Shown: positions 9,031 to 32,700, counted from the first letter of the stretch. The stretch is 34,180 nucleotides of DNA from an uncultured Gammaproteobacteria bacterium (GCA_964439095.1 CAYTMT010000002.1:1-34180), one strand, 5' to 3'. The notes: generated by a model not told the origin, from the letters alone. Numbers and translations are program-made.

Positions 9031-9059
9031 TTGAAAAAACTTTGTTCTCATGATACATT
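9031..9059 (+). promoter_or_regulatory. Putative promoter for tRNA-Cys
   Basis: TTGAAA 9031-9036, 17-nt spacer, TACATT 9054-9059. The tRNA starts about 15 nt downstream. Confidence 0.45.
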
Positions 9060-9073
9060 AGTTCCGCTTGGAC

Positions 9074-9145
9074 GGTACCGTAGCCAAGCAGTAAGGCAGA
9101 GGTCTGCAAAACCTCTATGCGTGGGTGCGATTCCCACCGGTACCT
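9074..9145 (+). tRNA. tRNA-Cys (GCA)
   Basis: Hand-folded cloverleaf. Acceptor GGTACCG/CGGTACC, anticodon stem GAGGT/ACCTC with loop CTGCAAA, T stem GTGGG/CCCAC, discriminator U73, A13-A22 mismatch typical of tRNA-Cys. No encoded CCA. T-loop is TGCGATT. Confidence 0.85.
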
Positions 9146-9152
9146 CAAAAAA

Positions 9153-9186
9153 ACAGAGCCCAGAAAATAAAGGCTCTGTTTTATTT
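9153..9186 (+). terminator. Intrinsic terminator after tRNA-Cys
   Basis: Stem acagagcc 9153-9160 pairs with ggctctgt 9172-9179, followed by ttttattt. Confidence 0.75.
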
Positions 9187-9222
9187 GCCGAGCAACCAAA
9201 AAACACGTACAATGTGGGTACT

Positions 9223-17496: not shown

Positions 17497-17835
17497 ATGT
17501 ATATTCTAGTGTCTTGGCTTTTGAACGCGGTAGCTGTTATGGTGGCCGCCTATTTAATTCCCTGGGTTCGGGTGGATAATTTTTGGGTGGCATTGGTGGT
17601 GGCTTTGGTTTTAGGAGTGGTAAATATAACACTCAAGCCAATTTTAGTTGTTCTTACGTTACCAATCAACATTCTTACCCTAGGATTATTTACCTTTGTA
17701 ATTAATGCTTTACTTATCATGCTTACCGCTGGTATTGTGCAGGGCTTTGATGTGGGTGGGTTTGGTAGTGCTTTGTTATTTAGTGTTGTTTTAGGGGTAA
17801 TTAATGGTATTTTAGGTGGCTGGAGTAAACGTTAG
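17497..17835 (+). CDS. Phage_holin_4_2 (DUF360/YvlD-like) family 4-TM membrane protein
   Basis: 112 aa. LLNAVAVMVAAYLIPWVRVDNFWVALVVALVLGVVNITLKPILVVLTLPINILTLGLFTFVINALLIMLTAGIV matches the family pattern closely. TATAAT at 17472-17477. Confidence 0.8.
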   Translation: MYILVSWLLNAVAVMVAAYLIPWVRVDNFWVALVVALVLGVVNITLKPILVVLTLPINILTLGLFTFVINALLIMLTAGIVQGFDVGGFGSALLFSVVLGVINGILGGWSKR

Positions 17836-18779: not shown

Positions 18780-19211
18780 TCAGGCTGTTCCACGCGGAAC
18801 TGTAGATATTATGAGTTTTATTTTTTTATCCATGCTTTTTAAGTTAAGCACTTCTTTTTTCCATTTTTTAAATAAGTCCTTTCTTTTTCCATAGAGCCTG
18901 CCATTAAGAGTGGGAAAAAGATTCTTCTTTATTGTTTCTTTACTGCGTATAAGCAAAAGAACATAATTGCGATTGCTGTGGGTGTATCGGTATATTTTTT
19001 CTGTTAATCCTAGTTTTGTTTTTATTAGTTCGATTAGAGGTGCATCGGAGATGTGTGTTTTTATTTGGAAAACAGGTATTTTTGTCTTGTTTTGTTTTAT
19101 CCAAAGAAAAGATCCGCTGGTGGCAATAACTCCAGCGACAAAATCAAGGGAAGGTAGTTTTATTTTTTTATCCATATTTGGGGCATTATTATATGTTTCT
19201 CTGTGAAACAT
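18780..19211 (-). CDS. Free-standing single-motif LAGLIDADG-like homing-endonuclease homologue with a degenerate catalytic motif
   Basis: 143 aa (131 aa if it starts at the ATG at 19175). The motif LDFVAGVIATSGSF (19107-19148) aligns with the LAGLIDADG core G-[FL]-[IF]-[DE]-G-[DE]-G-S-F, but Ala and Ser replace the acidic residues. The downstream beta-rich region and basic C-terminus resemble the I-CreI-type layout. Very AT-rich, with 18/60 G+C counted at 18841-18900. Confidence 0.6.
   Translation of the reverse strand: MFHRETYNNAPNMDKKIKLPSLDFVAGVIATSGSFLWIKQNKTKIPVFQIKTHISDAPLIELIKTKLGLTEKIYRYTHSNRNYVLLLIRSKETIKKNLFPTLNGRLYGKRKDLFKKWKKEVLNLKSMDKKIKLIISTVPRGTA
18814..18833. repeat. 20-bp direct repeat, copy 1 (agttttatttttttatccat)
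   Basis: Identical to 19156-19175. On the coding strand both copies encode MDKKIKL, near the C-terminus and at the N-terminus of the LAGLIDADG-like ORF respectively. Confidence 0.9.
19156..19175. repeat. 20-bp direct repeat, copy 2
   Basis: Identical to 18814-18833, with a 342-bp spacing. Confidence 0.9.
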
Positions 19212-19301
19212 TATAGACTGTAAAAAAACAGACTGTCAAGCCTGTTTTTTTGTGGTAAATAAAAGCACATAGTTACCCACAGTAATTTTTGTTAAATATC
19301 C

Positions 19302-19330
19302 TTGGTGGTGATCGTAGGTTATGGTATACT
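19302..19330 (+). promoter_or_regulatory. Extended -10 promoter at the head of the surface-gene block
   Basis: TTGGTG 19302-19307, 17-nt spacer containing TG at 19322-19323, TATACT 19325-19330. Confidence 0.5.
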
Positions 19331-19363
19331 GTACTTGGATTGAGTAATAATTTTTTTGTTTGT

Positions 19364-21685
19364 ATGTTTAATAACAAACTCGTTCGGCTATTTGATATGG
19401 CGACGTATATTATTTTGTTCATTATCGCAATCACCATTCCATTGTTTGTTGATAAGCACTTGGTAAATGCGTACGTTGTTCCTAAACAATATCTGTTTGC
19501 AGGGTTAATATTAGTGGCGTTGCTTACGGTTGCGGTCAAAACAGTGTTGGCAAAACGAGTTGAGCATGTTCGTTCGGTAATAGACACGCCGATTTTTGTT
19601 GTGTTGGGACTTTCATTATTATCGAGTTTGTTGGCAATAAATACATCAGATAGTTTTTTAGGTAGAAACGATTCTTTTGGGCTTAATTTTATTTTTATTG
19701 CAGTATCGGCTCTGTATTATTTTTTGTTGGTGAATTATGTGCGCACGGTGGGGCGTTGGCAGGCAATGTTGAATGTGCTGGTTGCAGTCGGAGGGGTAAC
19801 AGCAACTTTGTTTGTACTCAAATCCTTGTTTCATTTAGACTTACTTGCCTGGATAGCCCCGGGAATTTGGAATACGGTCGAAAAAATCAATAGCCCGTTT
19901 GGTTTGTGGTTAGTGATCGTGTTTGTGCTTTCCGCAGGACAGCTTATTCGTAAGGATGTTGCTCCAGGAAAAATGCTCCTATCTTTTTTTGTCATGCTTG
20001 TGTCTCTGGTTTCGCTTGTTCAATTGAGTTTCGTTATTTTGTGGTGGCTGTTATTTGCTGGAATTTTACTTCTCCTCCTTTTGGGCGTAATGTTTATTCA
20101 TGAGTCGCGACTAGGCTGGTTGTCGGTGTTGTTTTCGGTGCTTATTCTTACAACAGTATTTATCTTTTTCGGCACACCTAAAACTTTACAGTCAGCAGTT
20201 CCAGTGGAGGTCTCTTTGGGAATTAAACCTTCTTGGAGTGTGGCTGGAAAGGTTTTGTTTTCTGGTATTAAGCCATTTTTTATTGGTAATGGATTGTCTT
20301 CATTTGGTGTTTCGTTTTCTCAATTTCGTCCAGTGGGTTTTAATGCCGACCAGCTCGCCTGGAATCTTCGTTTTAGTCAGCCGCAGAACACCTTTATTGA
20401 ACTCCTGGCTAGTGGTGGGGTAACACTCGCGCTCGCTTTTGTTTTTGTGGTATTACTTCTTCTTGGTCATGCATTCCAAATTTTGTTTAAGCTGCGTTCA
20501 GAAAATGTAATGCAAGGATTGGTTACGCGTTTGGCGGGTATTCCACCACTAGCTATTGAAATTTTTTTGGTGGTAGTAGCGTGGGTGGTAGCAACGATTG
20601 GTATGGCATTTGTGTTCTACGGACCAACGTTATGGATTATGTGGTGGTTACTTCTTGGGCTTACTGTAAGTGGGCTGGCTTTTTTGGATAACGGACTCAC
20701 TTCGGTGCGTGAGTGGGTAGTGGAGGAATCTCCGCAATACAGCTTGTCGTTTTCTTTTTTGTTAATTATTGTGATGGCAGCAGTTGTGCTGAGTGGAATT
20801 TTTGGAGCACGGTTGTATTTGGCAGAAATGGATTACGCTAAGGCGCTTCAGAGTAACGCGCAAGATGCGGAAAGGTTTTTGTTGAGCGCGTTATCTAAGC
20901 GAAGTAATTTTGATTTGTATCATGCGGCGCTCGCTCAGGCCTATCTGGTGGACGCAGTACAGGCCAGTCAAGCAGCGAAGCCTGATGTGCAAGCAATAAA
21001 CACGTTGATGGGAAATGCGGTAAACGAAGCGCGGACCGCAATGGATTTATCGCCACGGTCGGTGATGATTGCAGAGAATTTAGCTACTATGTACGAGAAC
21101 ACAGCAGCGCTTATTCCTGGAGCGCGTGATTGGGCGATAAAAACATTGGAGGAGGCACGAGTGCTTGAATCAACAAATCCAGTATTGCGTTGGCGTTTAG
21201 GTAATAATTATGCGGGGGCTGGAAAATGGGAAGATGCTATCAAAAACTATCAAGCTGCAATTGATCTTAAACAGGATTATGTGGCGGCCTATGTAAGTTT
21301 GGCTGTGGCATATCAGGCTACAAACGATTTAGATAAAGCAGTAGAAACATATCGTATTATTGCTCCGGCCGGGATAAATAATTCTGATTATCTTTTTCAG
21401 TTTGGAAAATTATTGTTTAATCGTAATAAAGGCACTGATCGTGCTGATGCTGAAAAGTTGTGGTTGGAGGCAGTGCGTATTACTCCTAATTTTTCCAACG
21501 CGTTGTATAGCCTTGGTTTGCTCAATGAAACAAAAGGAAATAACACCGAAGCTCTTCGGTATTACTACAAGGTGCGCGATTTAAATCCGGACAATAAAGA
21601 TATTATTACTAAAATTAAAGCGTTGGTGGGAGGAGACAGCGCTCCAACTCCAGCTGTTGCAAAACCAGGAGAAAAAAAACGCTAG
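19364..21685 (+). CDS. O-antigen ligase/polymerase-like (Wzy_C-type) polytopic membrane protein with C-terminal TPR repeats
   Basis: About 12 TM helices followed by a periplasmic-type loop (GNGLSSFGVSFSQFRP). The C-terminal third has TPR repeats (GKWEDAIKNYQAAIDLKQDYVAAYVSLAVAY..., ALYSLGLLNETKGNNTEALRYYYKVRDLNPDN). The ATG at 19364 is preferred because the ORF-track start at 19289 precedes the promoter. Confidence 0.8.
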   Translation: MFNNKLVRLFDMATYIILFIIAITIPLFVDKHLVNAYVVPKQYLFAGLILVALLTVAVKTVLAKRVEHVRSVIDTPIFVVLGLSLLSSLLAINTSDSFLGRNDSFGLNFIFIAVSALYYFLLVNYVRTVGRWQAMLNVLVAVGGVTATLFVLKSLFHLDLLAWIAPGIWNTVEKINSPFGLWLVIVFVLSAGQLIRKDVAPGKMLLSFFVMLVSLVSLVQLSFVILWWLLFAGILLLLLLGVMFIHESRLGWLSVLFSVLILTTVFIFFGTPKTLQSAVPVEVSLGIKPSWSVAGKVLFSGIKPFFIGNGLSSFGVSFSQFRPVGFNADQLAWNLRFSQPQNTFIELLASGGVTLALAFVFVVLLLLGHAFQILFKLRSENVMQGLVTRLAGIPPLAIEIFLVVVAWVVATIGMAFVFYGPTLWIMWWLLLGLTVSGLAFLDNGLTSVREWVVEESPQYSLSFSFLLIIVMAAVVLSGIFGARLYLAEMDYAKALQSNAQDAERFLLSALSKRSNFDLYHAALAQAYLVDAVQASQAAKPDVQAINTLMGNAVNEARTAMDLSPRSVMIAENLATMYENTAALIPGARDWAIKTLEEARVLESTNPVLRWRLGNNYAGAGKWEDAIKNYQAAIDLKQDYVAAYVSLAVAYQATNDLDKAVETYRIIAPAGINNSDYLFQFGKLLFNRNKGTDRADAEKLWLEAVRITPNFSNALYSLGLLNETKGNNTEALRYYYKVRDLNPDNKDIITKIKALVGGDSAPTPAVAKPGEKKR

Positions 21686-21701
21686 TAAATTATTTGGGTG
21701 T

Positions 21702-22328
21702 ATGAAAAAAATATGGGTGTTAGTATTGTTGGTGGTGTGTGGAATTCCGGCGGCAGTATTTGCAGCCATGTCTTCGACGAACTATACAATTTACGCGGAT
21801 AGCGTTGATACTGGTGATGTGTTTGCAGCTGGTGGTGGTTATGAGCTTTCGGGAACGGTAGGCGAATCCCCTGCTGGTTTTTCGACGAGCACCTCGTATG
21901 AGGTGCGTGCTGGATATCAAGCCATGGAGCGCGGTGAGTTGACGGTAAGTTTAGATCCAGAAACGGTATCGCTCGGTACGCTAAACACGTCAACCGTGGC
22001 TAGTGCTTCTGTGATAGCGCGGGTAACTAGCGATGCGGATACTGGTTATTCGCTCTCTGTTGGAGGGGTAAGTAACGCATTGCTTGATTCGGTGGCAGAC
22101 GGAAGTGTAAGTGCGGGTGCAGGAGAGTATGGTATGGCGGTGAGTGGGGCTGATAGTGTGGTTGGTTTGGAAGATGTGGCGGTAGTTTCCAACCAAGTCT
22201 TAGCGGCTTCATCGACAGCAGTAGTTGATAGTGCAACTGTCTTGACGTTTAAGGCTTCGATGAGTGAAGCAACTCCTCCAGGAACTTATAATCAAACAGT
22301 AGTTTTGCAAGTAGTAGCAAATTTTTAA
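21702..22328 (+). CDS. Small secreted beta-rich protein (WxL/SCPU-like surface subunit, tentative)
   Basis: 208 aa from the ATG at 21702. Signal peptide MKKIWVLVLLVVCGIPAAVFA. Duplicated SSTNY/STSTSY strand motifs. The C-terminus PPGTYNQTVVLQVVANF resembles the terminal strand of WxL and spore-coat-U-type subunits. No Trp-x-Leu motif. Confidence 0.7.
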   Translation: MKKIWVLVLLVVCGIPAAVFAAMSSTNYTIYADSVDTGDVFAAGGGYELSGTVGESPAGFSTSTSYEVRAGYQAMERGELTVSLDPETVSLGTLNTSTVASASVIARVTSDADTGYSLSVGGVSNALLDSVADGSVSAGAGEYGMAVSGADSVVGLEDVAVVSNQVLAASSTAVVDSATVLTFKASMSEATPPGTYNQTVVLQVVANF

Positions 22329-22346
22329 TTGCCACAGCAATTTGTC

Positions 22347-23252
22347 ATGTTAAAGGATAACATACAATATAGTTGGTTTTTTAGAGCTTTATTACCAGTA
22401 GCGGTATTATCTTTTTTGGTTTTGGGAGGAGTACAGCGTGTTTTGACGGCTGGTTTTGGGATTAGTCCCCCACGTGGAGTGGTTACTGTGGCACCAGGCG
22501 GGGAAACTGTTATAAGTCAAACTATTAAAAACGATTCCACAAAAACTACTCATTTTCGACTGCAAGTGATGGGTGTTGTCCGTAGTGCAACGGGCGGAAT
22601 TGTATTAGTCTCGGGGCGAGATGTAGCTGAGGCTTGGATAAAAACAGAAAAGAGCGACATGTCTATTGGTCCAGGGAAGGAAGAGAAGGTTCAATATGTT
22701 ATTGCAGTACCAAAACGAGTTTTGCCTGGCTCGCACTATGTGGGTTTGGTAGCGGAAACAGTTCCAGAGGGAGGAGTAAACGAAAGGGCGGTTGGAATTA
22801 CCACGCGCCTCGTTACTATTCTTACTGTTCAAGTTTCAGGTGTTGTGGAAGAGAAAATCTCTCTTGTGAATTGGCAACTGAATGGTGTATGGTGGAACAG
22901 TGTGCGGGCAGTACAATTACGTTTAAAAAATGAAGGAGCAATTGAAGTGCCAATTCGGATACAGTTAATGGGACGCGACTGGTTTCATCATCGACAACAA
23001 TTTACTATCCCTTTTGATCGACAAGTTTTGGTTGGCGAAGAGCGAGATGTTTTGGAAGTAATTAATGTTGCAGGAATGAAAAATACGTTTATTGGGCCGA
23101 CCGCTTTGGAGCTCGTTGTTTCGTATGGTCGTACTGCGCAAGTAATCGTCAGTGCTAGAACGGTCTGGTTTGTGCCTGGTTGGTTGGTTGGGTTAGTGGG
23201 TGCAGTGGTGGTTTTAGGAGGGGTATTTTTATGGCAGAGAAAACGTACTTAG
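22347..23252 (+). CDS. Two-domain beta-sandwich protein with C-terminal TM anchor (DUF916/DUF3324-like architecture, tentative)
   Basis: N-terminal signal or anchor, an Ig/chaperone-like pattern (ISPPRGVVTVAPGGETVISQTIKNDSTKTTHFRLQV), a second beta domain, then TM GWLVGLVGAVVVLGGVFLW and the basic stop-transfer sequence QRKRT. An alternative TTG start at 22329 abuts the upstream stop. Confidence 0.7.
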   Translation: MLKDNIQYSWFFRALLPVAVLSFLVLGGVQRVLTAGFGISPPRGVVTVAPGGETVISQTIKNDSTKTTHFRLQVMGVVRSATGGIVLVSGRDVAEAWIKTEKSDMSIGPGKEEKVQYVIAVPKRVLPGSHYVGLVAETVPEGGVNERAVGITTRLVTILTVQVSGVVEEKISLVNWQLNGVWWNSVRAVQLRLKNEGAIEVPIRIQLMGRDWFHHRQQFTIPFDRQVLVGEERDVLEVINVAGMKNTFIGPTALELVVSYGRTAQVIVSARTVWFVPGWLVGLVGAVVVLGGVFLWQRKRT

Positions 23253-23253
23253 T

Positions 23254-24018
23254 ATGCAGCGTGTTTTGTTAGTATTTTTAATCACAACAGGAACACTGAT
23301 CGGTGTTTTTTCGTGGTTGTCGGCTTCGGCAGAAACCAACTATCAAGGAGTGGTAATAAGTTTAACGGTGCCCAGCTCAACGGCGGGTGCTTATTGTGGT
23401 AATGGTGTTGTTGAAGCAGGAGAAGAATGTGATGGTGGTGGGAGTAACGGCTCATGTCCGGCAAATTGTAGCTCTACATGTGCCCCCAATTCATGTGGTG
23501 ATGGGGCAACATCGGACACAACCAGTGTTTTAATAAAAGCAAAACCAGAGAAACGTTTTTTGGGCGAGTCAGGACAACGCGACAATTTTGGCACGATCAT
23601 TCTGCTATCTTTTTTTGATCCAAATTCTTTGAGTTCTCCCCAAGAGATGGTTTTGGCTACCAATGATCAGGGAGAAGTAATAATAGACAAAAATAACTTG
23701 CCAGATTTAGCACCTTTTTCGGGGTGGTCTGCTACTGTAAAAGGACTATCACATCTGACAAAAAAAATTATCAATGTTGATGTGATTAGAAATCAAAGAA
23801 CGGTATGGGACTTTACTGCTAATAATCAAAATTTTTTATTGGCGGGTGATGTGCAAGCAAGAAAAGATGATGTGGTAGATGTTCAAGATATTTCTGCAAC
23901 GCTCACTGCATTTGGAGCGCAGAAAGATAAAAACGCTGATTTAAACAACGACGGTGTTGTTGATGTGCAAGATATTAGTATTATTCTTCCTAATTTTGGT
24001 AGCATCGGTGATAAATAA
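23254..24018 (+). CDS. Secreted protein with Cys-rich CGNG..EECD repeat and C-terminal dockerin-like tandem Ca-binding repeats
   Basis: Signal peptide. YCGNGVVEAGEECDGGGSNGSCPANCSSTCAPNSCGDG at ~23392-23505 is of the myxococcal-type cysteine-rich repeat kind. DVVDVQDISATLTAFG...DLNNDGVVDVQDISIILPNFGS at ~23845-24010 is a dockerin-type duplicated F-hand pattern. Confidence 0.75.
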   Translation: MQRVLLVFLITTGTLIGVFSWLSASAETNYQGVVISLTVPSSTAGAYCGNGVVEAGEECDGGGSNGSCPANCSSTCAPNSCGDGATSDTTSVLIKAKPEKRFLGESGQRDNFGTIILLSFFDPNSLSSPQEMVLATNDQGEVIIDKNNLPDLAPFSGWSATVKGLSHLTKKIINVDVIRNQRTVWDFTANNQNFLLAGDVQARKDDVVDVQDISATLTAFGAQKDKNADLNNDGVVDVQDISIILPNFGSIGDK

Positions 24019-24024
24019 TTTTTT

Positions 24025-26724
24025 ATGTCTTTTTTTTCAAAACGAGTGGGTGTGGTGGTGGGGGTGTTAAGCGCGGTACTTATTTTTCCGATATCGGTTT
24101 TTGCGGCCGCCTCTTTTGAATTGAGTCCAAGTGGTGGGTCGTTGGTGGCGGGGTGTTCTCAAACCATCAAGGTTATTATGAAAACGGATAGTGTGGTAAA
24201 TGGAGCGCAAGTGTATCTGAATTATAGCGGTTTAGGAAATGCAGATTTATCGATAGAAAAAGGTACTGCTTTTTCTTCGTACGGCGTTTCACCTGAAGTG
24301 TTGCCGAGTAATATGAAAATGCGCTATGGCTATGGTGCGGATGTGATCGGCCAAAATCTCGAATTTGCGAATATTGTTTTTTCTCCGCAGCAGGTTGGTT
24401 CGAATGTGTTGTTAACCATTAATACAACAAACATTAATAATGGGACAAAAATAAGCAAAATTGCCCGCGCTTTGGATGGTCAGAATATTTTAACAAACAC
24501 GATTGATGGGTCCTACACAGTGGTGAGTGGGTATTGCGATTATAATGATCCTGTTTTTGTTTCTTCTACTCCAGCAAAAAACGCTGTCAATTTTCCGGTA
24601 GATAAGGATATTATTTTGGATGTAACTGATACTGGTGGTTCGGGTATCGACGCTAATTCATTTTTGGTAGAGGTAACTCAAGGGGGTAGCACAGTTCCTG
24701 TGCAAGTTTCCTACACCAAGATAGGGTTAAATGATAATCATTATTTGTTTACCGTCCATCCTGTTTCTAATTTAATCCCCCAAGTAAAAGTGACAGTAAA
24801 TGCGAGTGTGAGGGATAGGGCAAATAATTCCGGAAATGAAAATATTACTTTTAACGACCTTACCTGCCAACAACTTGGTTGTGTTGATTCAGGGACCATT
24901 ACTCCTACTTCAACAAGTTCATCAACTTCTTCTGGTGGTGGTACGGGGATTACCCCACAATGTAGTGATCATGAAGATAATGATGGCGACGGACTGATTG
25001 ACTACCCGGCAGATCCAGGCTGCAAGAGTCCGGAGTGGAACAATGAATATGTGGCTGGTGAAGCGCAGAATCCTAACCCTACCACTGGTGGTGGCACCCA
25101 AACCTCTGCTTTGTTGACCGTGGACAATGTGCATTTTTATTTAGCACAAGGATCTATTGAAGCTCATTTAGGGTCTGGTTCAACATTGGAACACCTGCCG
25201 CAGTCATCTTTAAAAATTGCAGTTGATACGAATATTGGTGAAGGGGTAACTGCCGCGAAAGTTATTTTGGGTGAAATGCGACGGGATATGTTTTTTGATA
25301 ATGCCCTTAAAAAATACGCAGTAGAATTATTTACCCCAGAGGGCTCTAGTGTGATTGATGGCACAGTAACCGTAGTTCATGGGAGTATAACTGAGTCAGT
25401 GCCGTTTCATGTTGTGCTATTACCGTTAGGAAAAATTTTTACTAAGACAGTTGTGGGGGGTGAAAAAAATTTAGCTGGAGCGCATGTTTTTCTAGACCAG
25501 CTCACGGGGGCAAATAATTTTGTACCAGTCAAAGAAGCGTTTACCAACGAAAACGGTGAGTATTCTTTTGTGGTCCCAAACGGAGGGTATCGTTTGCGCG
25601 TTCAGACAAGTGGTATCTCAACCGAAGAAACAGCGGGTTTTCGAATTACGAACAATATTGTGAATCGTCCTGTGGGTATTCTTATTCCTCCCAATCCAGA
25701 CGCCTCACTTTCAGAACAAATTCAATATGTAGCTGAGGTTGTGGCACGTCAGAGCGGAAAGACTTTGGGGCGTATCAATGATCCGCAGGTAGAAAAAATA
25801 GTAGGAAACCAGATAGCTCCTTTAGCCGCGGCTACAACCGCTTTGGCAGTTGTTCCTGCGTTGTCGCTTTTGAATCTTCTTTCATATTTGCGCTATCTGT
25901 TCTTACAACCACTCCTTCTCCTGCGTCGTCGGCAACGAAAAGAATGGGGTGTGGTCTATAATACGCTGAACAAGTTACCGGTTGATCTGGCTGTGGTGCG
26001 TTTGATTGAGGTAAGTGGCGGCAAGGTGGTGCAGTCGCGTGTTACCGATCGCGAAGGCCGATTCGCTTTCTTTGTTTCCGTTCCTGGTTTGTATCGAGTT
26101 GAAGTTAATAAAGATCGTTTTATTTTCCCGAGTAAAATTCTTCAGGGAATTTCTGAGGATACCTCATTTTTGGACCTGTATCATGGTGAGCCAATTCATG
26201 TTGATGTAAAAGATACGGTAGTAGCGGTAAATATTCCGCTTGATCCGATGGGTGGGATAGAAAAAACACCAAGCCGTATTATTTGGGATCGTAGTTTTCG
26301 TCAATTTCAAGTAGCTTTATCGCAATTTAGTATTGCTGCCGGAATAATTTCACTTCTTATTACCCCTACTTGGTTTGTAGGAGGGTTGCTCGTATTGCAA
26401 GTTGTTCTGTATGCGCTATTTCGACGGTTAAGTCAACCGAATAAACCAAAAAGCTGGGGCATTGTAAGTGATTTACGTCAAAAAACACCGGTAGAACGAG
26501 TCATTGCTCGGTTGTTCTCGAAGCAATTTGATAAACTTGTGGCCACTGAGGTTACTGACGGCAAAGGACGGTATTCGTTTTTGGCTGGTCCCAGTGATTA
26601 TTATGTTACTTTTGAAAAAAATGGTTATAAAAAAGAAATAGTAGAGGGTGTTCGGGTGAAAGAACACGGTGAAACGGTAAAAAAAGACGTGTCAATACAA
26701 AAAATTGAGGAAGATAAAAAATAG
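24025..26724 (+). CDS. Large envelope protein: cohesin-like N-domain, Ig-like domains, DNDGDG..DPGC motif, CarboxypepD_reg-like domains interleaved with TM segments
   Basis: 899 aa. Signal peptide, then a cohesin-like segment (FELSPSGGSLVAGCSQTIKVIMKTDSVVNGAQVYLNYSG) and SbsA/Big-like repeats. These are followed by an S/T linker, CSDHEDNDGDGLIDYPADPGC, three NGEYSF/EGRFAF/KGRYSF beta-sandwich modules, and hydrophobic segments near 25813-25920 and 26330-26420. Confidence 0.85.
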   Translation: MSFFSKRVGVVVGVLSAVLIFPISVFAAASFELSPSGGSLVAGCSQTIKVIMKTDSVVNGAQVYLNYSGLGNADLSIEKGTAFSSYGVSPEVLPSNMKMRYGYGADVIGQNLEFANIVFSPQQVGSNVLLTINTTNINNGTKISKIARALDGQNILTNTIDGSYTVVSGYCDYNDPVFVSSTPAKNAVNFPVDKDIILDVTDTGGSGIDANSFLVEVTQGGSTVPVQVSYTKIGLNDNHYLFTVHPVSNLIPQVKVTVNASVRDRANNSGNENITFNDLTCQQLGCVDSGTITPTSTSSSTSSGGGTGITPQCSDHEDNDGDGLIDYPADPGCKSPEWNNEYVAGEAQNPNPTTGGGTQTSALLTVDNVHFYLAQGSIEAHLGSGSTLEHLPQSSLKIAVDTNIGEGVTAAKVILGEMRRDMFFDNALKKYAVELFTPEGSSVIDGTVTVVHGSITESVPFHVVLLPLGKIFTKTVVGGEKNLAGAHVFLDQLTGANNFVPVKEAFTNENGEYSFVVPNGGYRLRVQTSGISTEETAGFRITNNIVNRPVGILIPPNPDASLSEQIQYVAEVVARQSGKTLGRINDPQVEKIVGNQIAPLAAATTALAVVPALSLLNLLSYLRYLFLQPLLLLRRRQRKEWGVVYNTLNKLPVDLAVVRLIEVSGGKVVQSRVTDREGRFAFFVSVPGLYRVEVNKDRFIFPSKILQGISEDTSFLDLYHGEPIHVDVKDTVVAVNIPLDPMGGIEKTPSRIIWDRSFRQFQVALSQFSIAAGIISLLITPTWFVGGLLVLQVVLYALFRRLSQPNKPKSWGIVSDLRQKTPVERVIARLFSKQFDKLVATEVTDGKGRYSFLAGPSDYYVTFEKNGYKKEIVEGVRVKEHGETVKKDVSIQKIEEDKK

Positions 26725-26774: not shown

Positions 26775-29700
26775 ATGGAAAAAATTGATCGGCTGTTGAA
26801 AAAGAATCGAAAGAGAACTCGGGCCATTTTAATGTTGGGGCCATTATTTTTCTTTGTGTTTTTGTTTTTTGGGCTCGTAGCCCGTTCTTCTTTTGCTGTA
26901 GCCGCAGCGGTTCCAGACGTTATAACGTATCAAGGTAAATTGTTGCTGAATAATGCTTCGGTAACGACTACTGTCCCAATACAGTTTGTTCTCTATGACA
27001 CTCCCAGCGCTGGAACGATTTTGTATACGGCCAGCGGAACTATAGGGGCTCCAGCAGCAACAGCAGTAACTCCAAATAAAGGCTTATTTAGTGTTGAGTT
27101 AGGTGGAAGTGGAACAAATCCATTAGACGCGGGCGTAGTATTTAAAAATAATAGCTCTGTTTATCTGGAAGTAACGGTAAACGGTGAAACCCTTTCTCCT
27201 CGCAAACGTTTAACGGCTAGTCCGTATGCTTTTAACGCAAAATATTTAGACGGTATTGCCGCCACAAGCACCCCCACTAGCTCAGCATATATTCCAGTAG
27301 CGGATTCTTCTGGTAATTTTAGTTTTAATCGGGTAACTTCAACCGGTTTTGTAGTGTCTGGCACTTCAACCTTGGCTACAACTACTATTTCTAGTTCGAC
27401 TATCGGGGTAGCGAATGTGGGGAATCTCTTTTTGACAAATGCCACCGGCACGAACTTATTTGTTTCCAGTCTTTCTGCGAGTAGTAGTGTTTTTTCCAGT
27501 GTTACGTCGAGCAATTTTTCCGTTACTGGTAATTTAGACATAACCACAGCGGTAATTCTTGGTCTCTCTACCGCGGATCTTTCGGATAGTAGCAGTCTGG
27601 CATATTTGGTTGGTGCAAATACCTTTACTGGTCCAAATACTTTCTCTGGAAATACTACTTTGGCCACTACTACCATTAGTTCTTCTACTATTTTTACTGC
27701 CAATATTAACTCGCTTAATGTTTTGTCTTCCTTGTCGTTGCCTGTTGCCTCAATTCTCGAGGCCTATCTTGCTCCTAATTCTGTTTCTTCCACCACGCTA
27801 AAATCAACAGGAGTAGTGGCTGGCACCTATGGTTCAGCCACACAAACAGCTCAATTTGTGGTGGATGAAGATGGTCGCATCCTTTCAGCCACCAATGTAA
27901 CTATCATTTCTTCATCTACAAGCCCTTCATCATCTTTTGATGGTACCATCGCTGCGGGTGATTTGTCGGGCACCTATCCAAATCCAACCGTGAGTAAAAT
28001 AAATGGCAATACATTGGGTAACACGGCCATTACTGGTGGTAACATTTTAGTGGCCAGCAGCACAGCAGGTTGGACATCGGTAGCGCTGGGGGGTGATGCG
28101 ACGATTGATTCTTCTGGTTTACTTTCCATTACCAACAATACGGTTACGGTGGCCAAGTTAGTAGCAGGTGATTTTTCTAGTAAAATAAATACTGGTACTT
28201 ATTCTATTAATGTTACCGGAACCGCTTCGAATGTAACTGGTGTGGTAGCATTGGCTAATGGTGGAACCAATGCAAACGCTAGTTTCTTCACTACCCCGGG
28301 CGAGTTTATTATCTATGATGGAAGTCGGTTAGTGGGGGCTGGTTTTTCTTCATCTTCGTTTGCTTTGACTAGTCACACACACTCCGCGGCAGATATTACG
28401 GCCGGTATTTTTTCGGGGGTAAGTTATACGTTCGCTAATGATTTGGCAGTATCTGGTTTTTCAACATTCCGTACCACCACCATCAGCTCTTCTTCTATTA
28501 CCACCGCCAATATTAACTCGCTTAATGTTTTTTCTGCCCTCACTCTTCCAGCTGCCTCAATCCTCGAAGCCTATCTCGCTCCTAATTCTGTTTCTTCCAC
28601 CGCGCTTAAATCAACGGGCGTAGCCAGTGGAATCTATGGTTCGGCCACGGAAATTGCTCAGTTTGTGGTTGATGAAGATGGGCGTATTCTTTCGGCCTCT
28701 AATGTTTCTATCGCCGCTTCTGTTACTACCACAGTGACTACTACTCTTGATGGCACCGCCGGCGGTGATTTGTCGGGCACCTATCCGGACCCAACCGTGA
28801 GTAAAATTAATGGTAACACGCTCGGCAATACGGCTACCACCAGTGGACATATTTTGGTAGCGAGTAGTACGGCAGGTTGGACATCGGTAGCGCTCGGTGG
28901 TGACGCAACGATTGACTATAATGGTTTGTTGTCAATTACAAATAATACTATCACCGCGGCCAAGCTAGCAGCTGGTGATTTTTCGAGTAAAATTAATGCG
29001 GGCACATACACAATTAGTGTCACCGGTACAGCCGATAACGTTACCGGCGTGGTAGCTATTGCCAACGGTGGTACAAATGCAAATGCCAGTCATTTTACTA
29101 CTCCGGGTGAGTTTGTAATTTATGATGGCAGCCGGTTGGTTGGATCAGGATTCACATCGTCTTCCTTTTCTTCGGGTGGTAGCCATACCCATCCTGCTTC
29201 GGATATTACCGCCGGTACTTTTGGCGGGTCGAGTTATGTATTTGCTAATGATTTGGCGGTGTTGGGTTCGGCGACTTTTGCTACTGCTACGGTACAGAAT
29301 GCGTTGCAAACCGACTCTGGGTTATTTTTATCGCAAGTTGGTTTGGCTGTTCCTAATTTGTTAACTAACCCTTCTTTTGAAAGTGGTATCACCAACTGGG
29401 GTGATCGACTTGGGTTTTTGGGTGGCAGTACATATTCAGTAACCAGCACTGCTTATAGCGGGTCTTCTGCCTTGCAGTTAGAGGCCAGGCTAGATTTGAG
29501 TGGGTTTTTTGGTGGCCCACCGCTTAAAATCGGCTACTTTTATCACGATACTTCTAATGTAACGCAAAGCGCTAGTAGTACTATTAGTTTTTATGCCCGC
29601 GGTGCAGTTGGTGGCGAACACGCGCGTATTTTGATTGAGCGTGATCCGGGTACTGGGCAAGCTGGTTGTGGTGGTAGTTTAGCTTCGGTTTATAATTTTA

Positions 29701-32700
29701 CCACTGGTGGTTGGGATTGCGTGGATTTACAAACAAGTGTGGCGGCTTTTGCGGTTGCTTCGCCGAATACTCAATCTTTTAGTTTAACTACAAGTTATCA
29801 ACGTTTTAATGCTACCTTTAATCCGGGTGCCTATGGTACGGTGCAAATCTCTATATTAGCCGGTGGTGCCTCGGCCTATAATGATGAAGTAGTTTTGTAT
29901 GATGCATTTAAATTGGAAGCAGGTAGCACTCCGTCATCATTTGATGGTGGTTCATCACCCATGTTCGCTTTAAAAAATAATAACGCAGCGGCGGACTATA
30001 ATTCACAAACATCACTACTATCTGTTCAGGATTCGGCGGCTACTAATTTTTTCCAGATTATGGGTGATGGCCGGGCCAATGTTGGTAGTGCCAGCGTTAC
30101 TGGTTCCATTGCTGTTTTTGGTCGTGGTTCAGAGCAAACAGTGCTGAATGGCTATGGGCAATTATTATCCCGTGGCGCATTTGGCTCTGATGATACGCTG
30201 ACTAGTGCTACTGGATCGCAGTTTATCTGGTATCCAAAGCGGGGTGCATTTAGAGCTGGGTATACTGATACGCTCACCTGGGGAGATAATACAATTGGTA
30301 ATTATTCATTCGCCGCAGGTAACGAAGTTTCCGCGCCCGGTGTTGGTGCGATTGCGTTTGGTAAAAACGTAACAGTAACCGGAGCAAATTCGGTGGCTTT
30401 TAGTGCTAGTTCCACACTTTCCACAGTCGCCAATGATAATATTTTTTCATTGCTTGGGTATAAGGTGGGTATTGGCACGGTTAATCCGGCCACCGCTTTA
30501 GTGGTAGTGGGTACTACCACTCTCGAGAATTTATCAGTAACCGGTTCTACTACGCTTGATAATATTAGCCCAACAGGAATAAATCCGGTGCTAACAGTAA
30601 CTGGTGGTTTAAAGTTGGGGTATGTAGGTTCTGCTGCTCTTGGTACGTTGCGGTGGAGCGGATCGCGATTGGAGTGGTACGATGGTTCTTCGTGGGTAGC
30701 AACATCTTTGCCGGCAGCGACGGATAATGGCACTACACTCCGATATGATGGTGCCGAATGGGTGACGAGTACTTTTTTACGGAATCTTTATAGTAGTTCT
30801 CAAATTAATATTAATAACGCAACCGGCAGTGCGGTATTAGCAGTGCGTGGAAGTGATCTTGAGTTACCTATTGCGGAGTTTTACAATGGACGTAGTGGTT
30901 TTGAAGATGTTCCTGCTATCCTTTCTATTCAACAAGGTGGTGGTGGAAGTGGTTGGGTAGGGATAGGAACAAGTACACTAGATTCAGTATGGGAACCAAA
31001 GTTGTTGGTAAAAAGTGACAGTGGTGCTCTAATGAAGCTCGATGGTGGAGTTGATGGTCTCAGTAACGAAATTTCTCGTACTCTTCTTTTTACTGGTCTT
31101 GGTCGTCTATCATTAGGAACCACTACTGCGGCAACAGTGAATGCCGCGAAGGTGACAATCGTTGGTGAAGGATCCACTGGAGCCACAAATCCATTGCAAG
31201 TGTTGCGTAATGATGGTACATCAAATTTTGTTATCCGTGATGATGGAATGGTTTTTGTTAAAAAAGGAAGTTTGATTGTAAATTCTGATTCCACTGCTTT
31301 GTCTCGTCCGGCGTTGTATGTGACCAGAAAATCAGGCGATATTAGTCAGGTCATTGCGCAGTTTACTGATAACGCCAGTTCAACTTTGGCCAACACCATT
31401 CTTAGTATCAATGCTGGCGGTATCCAAATTAACACTACAACTCTTGATTATTATAGTGTCGCAGGGATTCAAGGTGTTGGCGGAATTTCTATGGTAGATA
31501 GTGGCAGCTCGCCAGGTGTTGCCACCGGACCGCGTTTTTTGTGGAGTGGCAGTAAATTTCGAGTGGGCACATTTAATAGTGAGTTTGGTTTGGGGGCTGA
31601 CACTATCGCCCTTGGCACTGATGCTTATGCCGACCAAATTGAGGCCACTGCTCTCGGCTTGCATGCGTTGGCTACTGGGCGGAGGTCTTTAGTGTTGGGA
31701 AACGGAACTGCCTCTGGTGATTTTTCAACAGCAATTGGTAATGCGGAGTTCGTGTCAGTTGGTCATGATAAAGCGAATAGTTTTAATGTTCCCGAGGCCA
31801 GTGGTTATGGTGCGATTGCCATCGGGAGTGGAAGCATAAGTCAAAACTTTGGTGCCAAGACTCTGGCTGCAGGGACATCGTCACTTGCCATTTTTGGTAT
31901 AGCTTCTGGTACACAGTCGGTGGCGTTGTGGGGTGATGCTTCCGGCGACAATTCAATGGCTTTTGGGCGTTATACTTCTATCACTGCTTCTGGTGCTGTG
32001 GTATTAGGGCGGGGTGTTGATAGTAATAACCCGTTATTAAACACTACCAACAATTCTTTGGCTGTTGGTTTTAATTCTGATGTTCCCACCTTTTTTGTAG
32101 GTGGTGGTTCGGGAGTTGGCACATATGGCCAAGTAGGTATTGGCACCACCAACACTGCGTACACACTCGATGTGCGCGGTACTTTTGGCGCCACCGGTAC
32201 TTCCACTTTAGCCACCACCACCATTACCGCAGTCGCGAGCAGTTTAATACCTACCGAAGATAATGTATTTAGCTTGGGTACGTCGCTCATTCGCTGGAAA
32301 GATTTGTATGTAAGCTCCAGTAGTTTGCATATTGGCGCAGATGGTGCCGAGGGCAGCATTCATTATAATACTGATGACCATTATTTATCATTCAACGCGG
32401 GTAGTGGTATTGCCAGTCAACTGGTGATTGTAAGTAGCACTGGTTTTGTGGGTATTGGTACGACTACGCCTAATGCTGTGCTTACCGTGGGTGGTGGTGC
32501 GTATTTGGATGGCGGCTTGGAAGTAACTGGAAGTGCCACATCAACTGGTGATCAATATGTAGGTGGAAATTTATCAGTGATAGGATTAAGTCATTTTGCA
32601 AACCTTACTTGGGATAGTGCAACGGGCACGAGTGTGTTTCTTTCAAATGCAACGGCCATTGATGCTATGGTGGGAAATTTAACAGTGACGAGCACTCTCG

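Follow-up and report, generated by a model that had tools for sequence, protein, structure and literature searches.

In cellulosomes, scaffoldins carrying a type II X-module–dockerin dyad (XDoc) grip cell-anchored cohesins; the XDocs taken as references here are those of C. thermocellum CipA, with its SLH-anchored cohesins (PDB 2b59, 5k39 and 5g5d), and of A. cellulolyticus ScaA, with the ScaB cohesin (PDB 4u3s and 4wi0). The cohesin fold also occurs outside plant cell-wall degradation – in A. fulgidus (2xdh) and in the GH84/GH33 toxins of C. perfringens (2jh2, 2w1n, 2vo8 and 2ozn) – where enzymes are linked to one another or single proteins of unknown role are concerned. A further point of comparison is the Pam pilus of CPR bacteria, considered alongside the WxL/DUF916 (WxLIP) surface-complex operons of Firmicutes; the preprint on these pili, which makes no mention of cohesin or dockerin, puts forward chaperones anchored in the membrane and a terminator with a membrane-tethering role (bioRxiv, doi 10.64898/2026.03.03.709456).

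The window (the whole stretch of DNA analysed, 34,180 nucleotides) contains two adjacent genes which, with a probability that we put at about 0.68, encode a cognate, non-cellulosomal cohesin/X-dockerin pair that assembles into a complex on the surface of an uncultured, ultrasmall member of the Patescibacteria (CPR). Since the two genes are strict neighbours in all related genomes examined, a surface tether unrelated to cellulose breakdown appears the most likely role. All features discussed below lie on the + strand. The XDoc gene (23254–24018) encodes a protein of 254 residues with a signal peptide; its TAA stop codon (24016–24018) is followed by TTTTTT and then, in the same frame, by the ATG at 24025 of the 899-residue cohesin gene (24025–26724), so that the 6-nt gap noted in the original prediction is exact. 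The features from which that prediction had been drawn are likewise present: a duplicated Ca-loop pattern in the C-terminal part of the 254-residue protein (DDVVDVQDISATLTAFG, residues 205–221, 23866–23916, and DLNNDGVVDVQDISIILPNFG, residues 229–249, 23938–24000), a cohesin-like strand pattern after the signal segment of the larger one (FELSPSGG...YLNYSG, residues 31–69, 24115–24231) and, further along the latter, two hydrophobic blocks by which it would be embedded in the membrane.

By hydropathy, the 254-residue protein has no hydrophobic segment besides residues 1–24, which belong to a signal-peptide-like N-terminus (23254–23331, ...SASA/ETN). Beyond this lies a Cys-rich acidic repeat (CGNGVVEAGEECDGG..., 23392–23505) that aligns with the DUF4215 repeats of P0002, P0003 and P0013 and corresponds to one DUF4215/myxo-disulfide-like unit, with six Cys at residues 48–81; Pfam makes no call on it in the window's copy. 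This repeat is the variable 'cargo' part of the protein and is dispensable, as some homologues consist of signal peptide, X and Doc alone. From AKPEKR onwards, residues ~90–192 (23521–23829) make up an X-module-like beta-sandwich, delineated by AlphaFold2 (AF2) strands at pLDDT 70–88, by HMMER and by its conservation throughout the XDoc family.

The module that follows (residues 195–252, 23836–24009) resembles a dockerin in its sequence: it consists of a tandem ~22-residue duplication with the pattern of an EF-hand-like Ca loop and a helix. Repeat 2, DLNNDGVVDVQDIS, has the canonical 12-residue loop D-x-N-x-D-G-x-x-D-x-x-D, with Ca-ligand residues at loop positions 1, 3, 5, 9 and 12 (DLNNDGVVDVQD), whereas repeat 1, GDVQARKDDVVDVQDIS, is atypical in its longer loop of 14 residues, carrying D199, D205, D209 and D212; a first Ca loop of more than 12 residues is also seen in the aligned type II chains 4wi0_B and 5k39_B. 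An 8-mer, VVDVQDIS, is duplicated exactly in the two repeats. Across the XDoc family, conservation reaches 90% or more at the Ca-ligand positions D199, D205, D212, D229, N231, D233 and D240, with the repeat 1 loop degenerate in some lineages (L020 and L021). This conservation and the full Asp/Asn ligand pattern in repeat 2 speak against a lack of the Ca-coordinating geometry, which had been named as counting against a dockerin, and the module is predicted to bind Ca. Within proteins, moreover, the two repeats co-vary at variable positions (2.88 versus 1.54 identities out of 4; permutation p ~0.001), a symmetry expected of a two-fold symmetric dockerin.

Similarity to solved XDoc structures spans both X and Doc: phmmer matches residues 143–252 to 4wi0_B (E 1.2e-4) and 4u3s_B (E 2.1e-4), and the XDoc family profile reaches 5k39_B (E 1.3e-7), 4wi0_B (3.5e-7) and 4u3s_B (5.3e-7) in the PDB. 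The dockerin profile search that had been proposed returned a match to NCBIfam dockerin_GC (E 3.9e-5), but curated cut-offs were missed, both there (23.9 bits against 29) and for Pfam Dockerin_1 (11.2 bits against 22.9), a profile matched by six of the 14 XDoc family members, with a best E of 4e-4. AF2 does not fold the dockerin segment confidently (residues 193–254, pLDDT <50), and the best Foldseek matches to this low-confidence XDoc model, all XDoc chains (2b59_B, 4fl4, 5g5d_B, 4wi0_B and 4u3s_B), reach TM 0.26–0.40. As the best matches are X-module+dockerin dyads, we regard the module as type II-like; the dockerin-like character originally proposed for it stands, the type I label does not.

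The 899-residue protein also opens with a hydrophobic signal-like segment (residues 1–35 by hydropathy; 24025–24105, ...VFAAA/SFEL), and its cohesin-fold module occupies residues ~28–175 (24106–24549). AF2 models residues 25–180 as an all-beta domain (pLDDT 93.4, pTM 0.87) with the nine-stranded flattened beta-sandwich, or jelly-roll, of cohesins, and the best 20 Foldseek matches in the PDB are without exception cohesins (E 1.2e-6 to 3.8e-4, TM 0.5–0.75, probability 1.00), whereas non-cohesin matches stay below TM 0.5. These 20 include several cohesins solved with bound dockerins as well as the non-cellulosomal 2xdh, the best match of all, and C. perfringens modules rank among the top matches; the N-domain thus folds as a cohesin and not as the non-cohesin Ig domain that would have spoken against the prediction. 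Pfam Cohesin (PF00963) finds no match at E<=1 in the window's protein, whose sequence link to that family is transitive, via relatives. An exhaustive HMMER search gave 23 relatives, and PF00963 is matched by five of 21 cohesin-family members, two of them over the gathering score (P0032 at 30.2 bits and P0037 at 33.0, against 24.1), with the L001 neighbour at 20.6 bits. Searched against the PDB by sequence, the cohesin family profile found nothing. A Cys pair in the module, C44 and C171, is conserved in the family. Unlike type II cohesins, the model has neither the typical helix nor the flaps, and type I, type III and archaeal cohesins match it at least as well, which places the Coh and Doc 'types' of this pair outside the textbook classes.

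After the cohesin come a Big_5 bacterial Ig-like domain (residues 174–276, 24544–24852, Pfam E 2.7e-4), a Ser/Thr-rich linker enclosing an acidic double-disulfide repeat (residues 312–335, 24958–25029, NCBIfam acid_disulf_rpt E 7.4e-6; Cys 313 and 333) and the CarboxypepD_reg-like beta-sandwich of a predicted extracellular stalk; PF13620 matches the protein in three stretches, best at residues 482–543 (25468–25653, E 1.3e-18). The two hydrophobic blocks comprise residues ~597–634 (25813–25926), followed by RRRQRKE, and residues ~761–802 (26305–26430), which probably form a helical hairpin and precede RRLSQPNKPK. Between them lies an SdrD_B/CarboxypepD_reg-like domain (25942–26244; Pfam SdrD_B E 1.5e-10, residues 656–708), and a C-terminal CarboxypepD_reg-like domain (26452–26724; Pfam phage_tail_N and CarboxypepD_reg, residues 838–880) runs up to the stop codon. 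Across orthologues, conservation of the C-terminal 570 residues is high, at E-values no worse than 1e-150.

An XDoc gene stands immediately upstream of a cohesin gene in 16 of 16 informative loci from Ca. Magasanikbacteria, Peregrinibacteria and other Patescibacteria, 12 of them distinct loci reached via XDoc and four (L013, L020, L021 and L023) found independently via distant cohesin-family members. Pairing survives changes of cargo (DUF4215, FN3/Pur_ac_phosph_N, acidic repeats or none) and of anchor (polytopic TM, single C-terminal TM or SLH), as well as loss of the operon context in L001, L020, L021 and L023; the XDoc and cohesin modules alone are common to all pairs. The cohesin partners carry a detectable anchor, with one exception (that of L023 shows no hydrophobic segment at the threshold used), and the XDoc partners only a signal segment. 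Such conserved adjacency indicates co-function, not necessarily direct binding.

In the window, the pair closes a conserved five-gene operon. Its first gene (19289–21685) encodes a polytopic membrane protein of 798 residues with ~12–14 hydrophobic segments and C-terminal TPR repeats (Pfam, residues 597–779), whose orthologue holds the same position in nine loci. Next comes a pilin-like secreted protein (21657–22328; 223 residues as a mechanical ORF, with a likely start at ATG 21702), also conserved in position, which matches NCBIfam CPR_pilus_PamT (E 9.3e-14) and CPR_Pam_pilin_C (E 1.5e-6), as does its orthologue in L003. These E-values are significant, but the scores of 51.4 and 28.4 bits fall far short of the curated equivalog cut-offs of 240 and 55 (NF058579/NF058581), so that the protein is, as judged from these profiles, a distant PamT homologue and not a Pam member; the lineage, too, is different, Magasanikbacteria here against Saccharimonadia or Microgenomatia for Pam. 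The third gene (22329–23252) specifies a 307-residue WxLIP/DUF916-like protein whose signal segment and C-terminal TM anchor (hydropathy, residues 14–43 and 277–304) give it the architecture of membrane-anchored pilus chaperones; WxLIP_PGBD (Pfam) scores E 0.12 in the window's copy and 7e-6 to 6e-3 in five of five homologues, just below its cut-off, and no NCBIfam Pam family matches the protein. [quoted passage not shown] Directly 3' of the pair, an open frame with a signal-like segment (26775–34178) encodes a giant secreted protein of at least 2,468 residues that runs off the window, and giant genes homologous to it come after the operon in L003/L010 and L017/L018; the neighbourhood analysis in the Pam preprint, similarly, notes a large tail-fibre-like gene.

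Neither the operon proteins nor the XDoc-family cargoes that were examined showed a GH, CE, PL or CBM domain. An operon free of glycoside hydrolases and CBMs makes the use of the proposed interaction non-cellulosomal, as had been supposed; dockerin-bearing carbohydrate-active enzymes are absent, as is a scaffoldin with a CBM and several cohesins, each protein having a single cohesin except P0016, which has two. What is shared with the type II anchor is an X-module-like beta-sandwich with a dockerin-like two-repeat module immediately behind it, closing a predicted secreted protein that is otherwise unanchored, with a partner cohesin on a cell-anchored one – in P0016 even on SLH repeats (SLHx3+PG_binding). 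What differs, apart from the one-to-one adjacency of the genes and the CPR host, is the anchor itself, here a polytopic membrane protein whose TM blocks have conserved beta-sandwich domains both between and behind them. From the A. fulgidus and C. perfringens systems the locus is set apart by its dedicated two-gene cassette within a pilus-like operon and by the proposed membrane tethering of a small, non-enzymatic protein.

Taken together, these features suggest the following model. Both proteins would be exported by the Sec pathway, given their signal-like N-termini, and the 899-residue protein would be held in the cytoplasmic membrane by its two hydrophobic blocks, with the cohesin at the far N-terminal tip of an extracellular stalk of ~570 residues built from Big_5, Ser/Thr linker, disulfide repeat and beta-sandwich domains. 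The anchorless 254-residue protein would then bind this cohesin through its C-terminal X-module and dockerin in a Ca-dependent manner, much as scaffoldin XDocs do, thereby tethering whatever its N-terminus carries – here, one Cys-rich repeat. In this lineage, where a PamT-like pilin and a WxLIP/chaperone-like protein share its operon, the complex probably anchors a surface appendage or forms its base.

The same neighbours lend themselves to another reading, in which the two proteins serve one surface-appendage pathway with no cohesin–dockerin contact between them. The XDoc protein might, for example, be a fibre or adaptor subunit assembled by donor-strand exchange via the WxLIP/chaperone-like protein, as in Pam or chaperone-usher pili; the 899-residue protein would then act as a platform for assembly, with its cohesin-fold domain no more than an Ig-like spacer or adhesin. 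The PamT-like pilin and membrane-anchored WxLIP-like protein of the operon, the chaperones and terminator proposed for CPR pili (doi 10.64898/2026.03.03.709456) and the fusion of a pilin-like N-domain to XDoc in L001 all fit this reading, and the TM and intracellular part, as the most conserved region of the 899-residue protein, suggests more than a passive anchor. However, the pair persists in L001, L020, L021 and L023, where none of the adjacent genes tested is pilin-like or chaperone-like; no other feature is common to all pairs; and the swapping of TM for SLH anchors with the cohesin kept is what one would expect if the cohesin were a modular binding socket. We therefore consider a contact-free arrangement unlikely, though worth bearing in mind.

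Cohesins and matching dockerins of cellulosomal systems are usually not encoded one-to-one, and each module might accordingly have a different partner: the cohesin could bind dockerins on other proteins encoded in the genome, for instance the giant protein, whose C-terminal end falls beyond the window, and the dockerin-like module might recognise something else, for example a glycan, another cohesin or a ligand on host cells. The giant surface protein after the operon (here, in L003 and in L017/L018) and the two cohesins beside a single XDoc gene in P0016 would suit such an arrangement. Against it stands the strict one-to-one adjacency in all 16 loci, including L004, L020, L021 and L023, which have no giant gene; pattern scans across GTDB representative genomes and JGI metagenomes, in which each contig gave a single XDoc locus, point the same way, albeit as weak evidence, since the search was motif-limited. 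On balance, separate partners seem rather improbable. Least credible of all is a chance resemblance, with an Asp-rich tandem motif mimicking a dockerin and a generic beta-sandwich a cohesin: the window's copies do fall under the curated Pfam and NCBIfam cut-offs, and the cohesin profile does draw a blank in the PDB, but the reach of the XDoc profile to solved XDocs (E 1e-7), the 20 best structural matches, cohesins throughout, the family members over the Pfam Cohesin threshold and the conserved Ca-ligand columns make coincidence very hard to believe.

A broader version of the cognate-pair reading is more speculative and, to our minds, rather doubtful: that the XDoc–cohesin cassette is a portable, previously unrecognised 'plug-and-socket' which fixes surface appendages or adhesins of Patescibacteria to the cell and is a relative of the type II cellulosome anchor. 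If true, it would represent a new way of anchoring the machinery with which episymbiotic ultrasmall bacteria attach to their hosts, and the cassette would be an ancestor or a transfer product relative to the cellulosomal anchor. Candidate attachments for such a socket are Pam/WxL-like fibres, a pilin-like domain being joined directly to XDoc in Peregrinibacteria, and, possibly, the adjacent giant protein.

An ORF for a 254-aa protein that ends in an X-module plus dockerin-like dyad (XDoc; 23254-24018, + strand) is followed, in the same frame, by one for an 899-aa protein with a cohesin-like N-terminal domain (24025-26724, +). The junction between them reads TAA-TTTTTT-ATG, and the preceding gene (22329-23252) stops 1 nt ahead of 23254, so that genes are tightly packed here. 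The original prediction of these two ORFs was borne out in coordinates, strand, 6-nt gap and quoted motifs. Two C-terminal segments of the 254-aa protein – DDVVDVQDISATLTAFG (residues 205-221) and DLNNDGVVDVQDISIILPNFG (residues 229-249) – have the exact 8-mer VVDVQDIS in common.

Both products start with a hydrophobic, signal-peptide-like segment, beyond which the 254-aa protein has no further hydrophobic stretch. The 899-aa protein has two more hydrophobic blocks (~597-634 and 761-802), each followed by an Arg/Lys cluster, in agreement with the earlier view that it is embedded in the membrane through its later segments; its C-terminal half is its best-conserved part (E about 1e-160 between orthologues). 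Behind the first and second membrane blocks, with an Arg/Lys cluster ahead of each, lie CarboxypepD_reg/SdrD_B-like beta-sandwich domains (~640-740 and 810-890), which by the positive-inside rule would be cytoplasmic – an unusual location for such a fold.

The dockerin-like character of the C-terminal duplication in the 254-aa protein stands, given its two repeats and its XDoc matches among PDB sequences: residues 143-252 find the X-module plus dockerin chains 4wi0_B (E 1.2e-4) and 4u3s_B (E 2.1e-4) as well as the XDoc of Clostridium thermocellum CipA (2b59_B, E 7e-3). A profile built from seven family members reaches 1.3e-7 for 5k39_B and 3.5e-7 for 4wi0_B, and such a gain in E from single sequence to family profile would be the expected behaviour under true homology. 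The 254-aa protein stays under the curated cut-offs of Pfam Dockerin_1 (E 0.44) and NCBIfam dockerin_GC (E 3.9e-5), and its probable membership of the dockerin superfamily rests on this profile-level homology. As the match covers both the beta-sandwich and the dockerin, the module appears to be a type II-like XDoc dyad and not a type I dockerin; the latter label, used in the original prediction, was rejected, the best PDB matches being X-module plus dockerin chains.

At the sequence level, the predicted pattern of Asp/Asn calcium ligands is canonical in repeat 2, a loop of 12 residues that has Asp/Asn at positions 1, 3, 5, 9 and 12, and departs from this in repeat 1, whose loop is longer, as it also is in the solved XDocs aligned to it. 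The ligand columns (D199, D205, D212, D229, N231, D233 and D240) show 90% conservation or more. Dockerins have an internal two-fold symmetry, and in a manner that matches it the two repeats of each protein change jointly at their variable positions: these read DVQ/DVQ for the window, NAL/NAL for L001 (a Peregrinibacteria locus), and NGL/NGL and NEL/NEL for L012 and L021, two further related loci; the Magasanikbacteria form is D[IV]L. Repeat identity is 2.88/4 within proteins vs 1.54/4 between them (permutation p about 0.001, eight lineages). Given 14 sequences and the whole 254-aa protein, AlphaFold2 folded the X-module (pLDDT 70-88) and did not fold residues 193-254; XDoc chains head the Foldseek matches of this model, at low TM. 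A homology search with a narrower XDoc alignment returned eight proteins – too few to gauge breadth – including P0045, which combines Pfam Dockerin_1 with CarboxypepD_reg.

The N-terminal domain of the 899-aa protein was recognised by neither Pfam, NCBIfam nor PDB sequence searches, a word-indexed homology search with the domain fragment returned nothing, and a profile search against the PDB likewise gave nothing relevant; fold comparison alone succeeded. With 18 family sequences, AlphaFold2 produced an all-beta model (pLDDT 93.4, pTM 0.87), whose best 20 Foldseek matches in the PDB are all cohesins (E 1e-6 to 4e-4, TM-scores up to 0.75): the non-cellulosomal Archaeoglobus fulgidus cohesin 2xdh, the Ruminococcus flavefaciens ScaC and ScaB cohesins, Clostridium acetobutylicum CohA2, Acetivibrio cellulolyticus cohesins and Clostridium perfringens cohesin-like modules. 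Past these, TM drops below 0.5 and the matches are generic Ig domains. On the strength of the model and its cohesin-only top 20, the fold assignment is therefore secure, and the domain is predicted to be a cohesin, as had been proposed, rather than a non-cohesin Ig domain. Since the model contains no helix, the embellishments seen in classical type II cohesins are absent from it.

Searched exhaustively with HMMER, 1.8 billion representatives yielded 23 relatives of the domain, nearly all of them long proteins that carry it directly behind the signal peptide, and the family has a conserved pair of cysteines (C44, C171). Pfam Cohesin matches five of 21 aligned domains, two of which (in the homologues P0032 and P0037) exceed the gathering score; a cohesin profile thus recognises some relatives and not the window copy, whose predicted superfamily membership rests on its fold. 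Curated thresholds miss cohesin and dockerin modules as divergent as these.

That the two genes work as a couple is best supported by their pairing itself. Starting from XDoc, 12 distinct loci were reached – the window, L001 (identical to L002), L003 (L010), L004 (L005), L006 (L016), L007, L008, L009, L011, L012 (nearly the same as L019), L015 and L017 (nearly the same as L018) – and in all 12 the next same-strand gene starts with this cohesin-like domain. Distant members of the cohesin family led independently to four more – L013 (identical to L014), L020, L021 and L023 – in each of which the directly upstream gene ends in an XDoc module (E 9e-15 to 9e-49). With L022 left out as too short to judge, adjacency is found in 16/16 informative loci, whose named taxa are Patescibacteria, Ca. 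Magasanikbacteria and Ca. Peregrinibacteria; the genes flanking the pair differ in L001, L020, L021 and L023.

The cargo N-terminal to XDoc varies: one Cys-rich repeat in the window, several DUF4215 repeats in L001, FN3/Pur_ac_phosph_N-like domains in the Magasanikbacteria loci and L023, an unrelated region in L013, and none in L020 (209 aa) and L021 (227 aa). The XDoc partners have a signal segment and no anchor; nearly all cohesin partners have a detectable anchor, be it polytopic TM segments or a single C-terminal TM segment (L001), with none in L023 at the hydropathy threshold used. In P0016 (L013, 3231-6386), the closest relative of the window cohesin domain, the anchor is made up of three SLH repeats plus a PG_binding_1 domain, and the cohesin module is present twice. 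Such a layout is that of a cellulosomal anchoring scaffoldin, here in an uncultured bacterium and without CAZyme context.

We put the probability that cohesin and XDoc bind each other directly at roughly two in three. Both proteins would be exported through Sec; the 899-aa protein would be held in the membrane with its cohesin displayed at the tip of a long stalk, and the XDoc protein would dock onto it in a Ca-dependent manner, the complex anchoring a small cargo or, in the window lineage, part of a pilus-like surface structure. The asymmetry of anchors is what one would expect of a cohesin that anchors and a dockerin protein that is tethered. That the two proteins act together without cohesin–dockerin contact is a distinctly weaker candidate; it would share the conserved adjacency with direct binding. 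Somewhat less probable still is that each module has a separate partner, a reading that sits poorly with pairing in every informative locus. A chance resemblance to cohesins and dockerins is very improbable: the sub-threshold profile scores would suit it, the fold matches and the rising family-profile scores would not.

As proposed, the pair would work like the type II XDoc–cohesin anchor of cellulosomes, and it is similar to known non-cellulosomal cohesin and dockerin modules. Unlike a cellulosome, the system lacks CAZymes, a CBM and a multi-cohesin scaffoldin and is therefore not one, in line with the non-cellulosomal use originally proposed; the cellulosome reading was rejected, neither CAZyme nor CBM being present. 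Full-text literature searches returned no description of cohesin–dockerin pairs in surface operons of CPR bacteria, and public records leave the operon proteins unnamed, one homologue being labelled "DUF4215" only. CPR/Patescibacteria depend on attachment to host cells, and how their surface structures are built and anchored is largely unknown. A conserved minimal 1:1 cassette, if true, would extend the high-affinity interaction to a new superphylum, give it a new role in anchoring surface appendages instead of organising enzymes, and provide a functional handle on an operon of publicly unnamed genes. Being very small, such a natural pair would lend itself readily to in vitro tests and might serve as an orthogonal protein-assembly tag.

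An operon of five genes, conserved across nine loci, has the pair as its distal part (genes 4 and 5). Gene 1 (19289-21685) encodes a polytopic membrane protein of 798 aa (about 12-14 TM segments) that carries TPR repeats at its C-terminal end and whose membrane part has no Pfam family; a glycosyltransferase-C- or O-antigen-ligase-like role is a guess. Gene 2 (21657-22328) encodes a 223-aa secreted protein distantly related to PamT, the tip pilin of the CPR pilus system (E 9e-14, far under the cut-off). Its mechanically called ORF overlaps the 3' end of the 798-aa gene; since family alignments begin at Met16, the true start is probably ATG 21702, 16 nt past the upstream stop. The product of gene 3 (307 aa) has a signal segment and a C-terminal TM segment, and its homologues lie near the WxLIP_PGBD/DUF916 threshold.

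A link to an appendage is suggested by P0002 (421 aa; L001, 8001-9263, from a Peregrinibacteria MAG), which joins a pilin-like N-terminus, resembling the 223-aa PamT-like family (E 2e-5), to five DUF4215 repeats and XDoc; the fusion hints that XDoc may tether pilin-like material. According to a 2026 preprint that mentions neither cohesin nor dockerin (doi 10.64898/2026.03.03.709456), the Pam pilus of CPR bacteria comprises pilins that act by donor-strand exchange, PapD-like chaperones anchored in the membrane and a terminator with a membrane-tethering role.

Directly after the pair comes the gene (26775-34178, +) for a giant secreted protein, which runs past the window end and encodes at least 2,468 aa; units of ~250 aa recur in it (e.g. 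'...ILEAYLAPNSVSS...VSKINGNTLGNTA...'), and its sole Pfam signal is a weak endosialidase tail-spike match near the visible end. In L003/L010 and L017/L018, too, the operon is followed by a giant gene, homologous to this one. Promoter and terminator scans gave no excess over shuffled expectation, and the public runs containing the stretch are DNA metagenomes only (wastewater/freshwater).

The window is chromosomal (dnaA, rnpA, trigger factor, H+-PPase, polA, holA, rmuC) and probably lies near the replication origin: dnaA (167-1576, -) and rnpA (2285-2674, -) stand at its start, and cumulative GC skew climbs steadily along it. Rfam found three tRNAs in the window and nothing else. A tRNA-Cys gene (9074-9146) falls within the mechanically called polA ORF (9031-11907), whose 5'-3' exonuclease domain begins only at residue 67; the true start of polA must thus lie downstream of the tRNA. 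A free-standing ORF (142 aa, 18780-19211, -) that resembles LAGLIDADG homing endonucleases sits close upstream of the operon; Rfam found no intron or rRNA context for it, and a perfect 12/12 sigma-70 consensus, TTGACA-18-TATAAT (19239-19210, -), precedes it. A small membrane protein of the Phage_holin_4_2 family (17497-17835, +; E 2e-33) is encoded among short ORFs and tRNAs at 16.3-19.2 kb.
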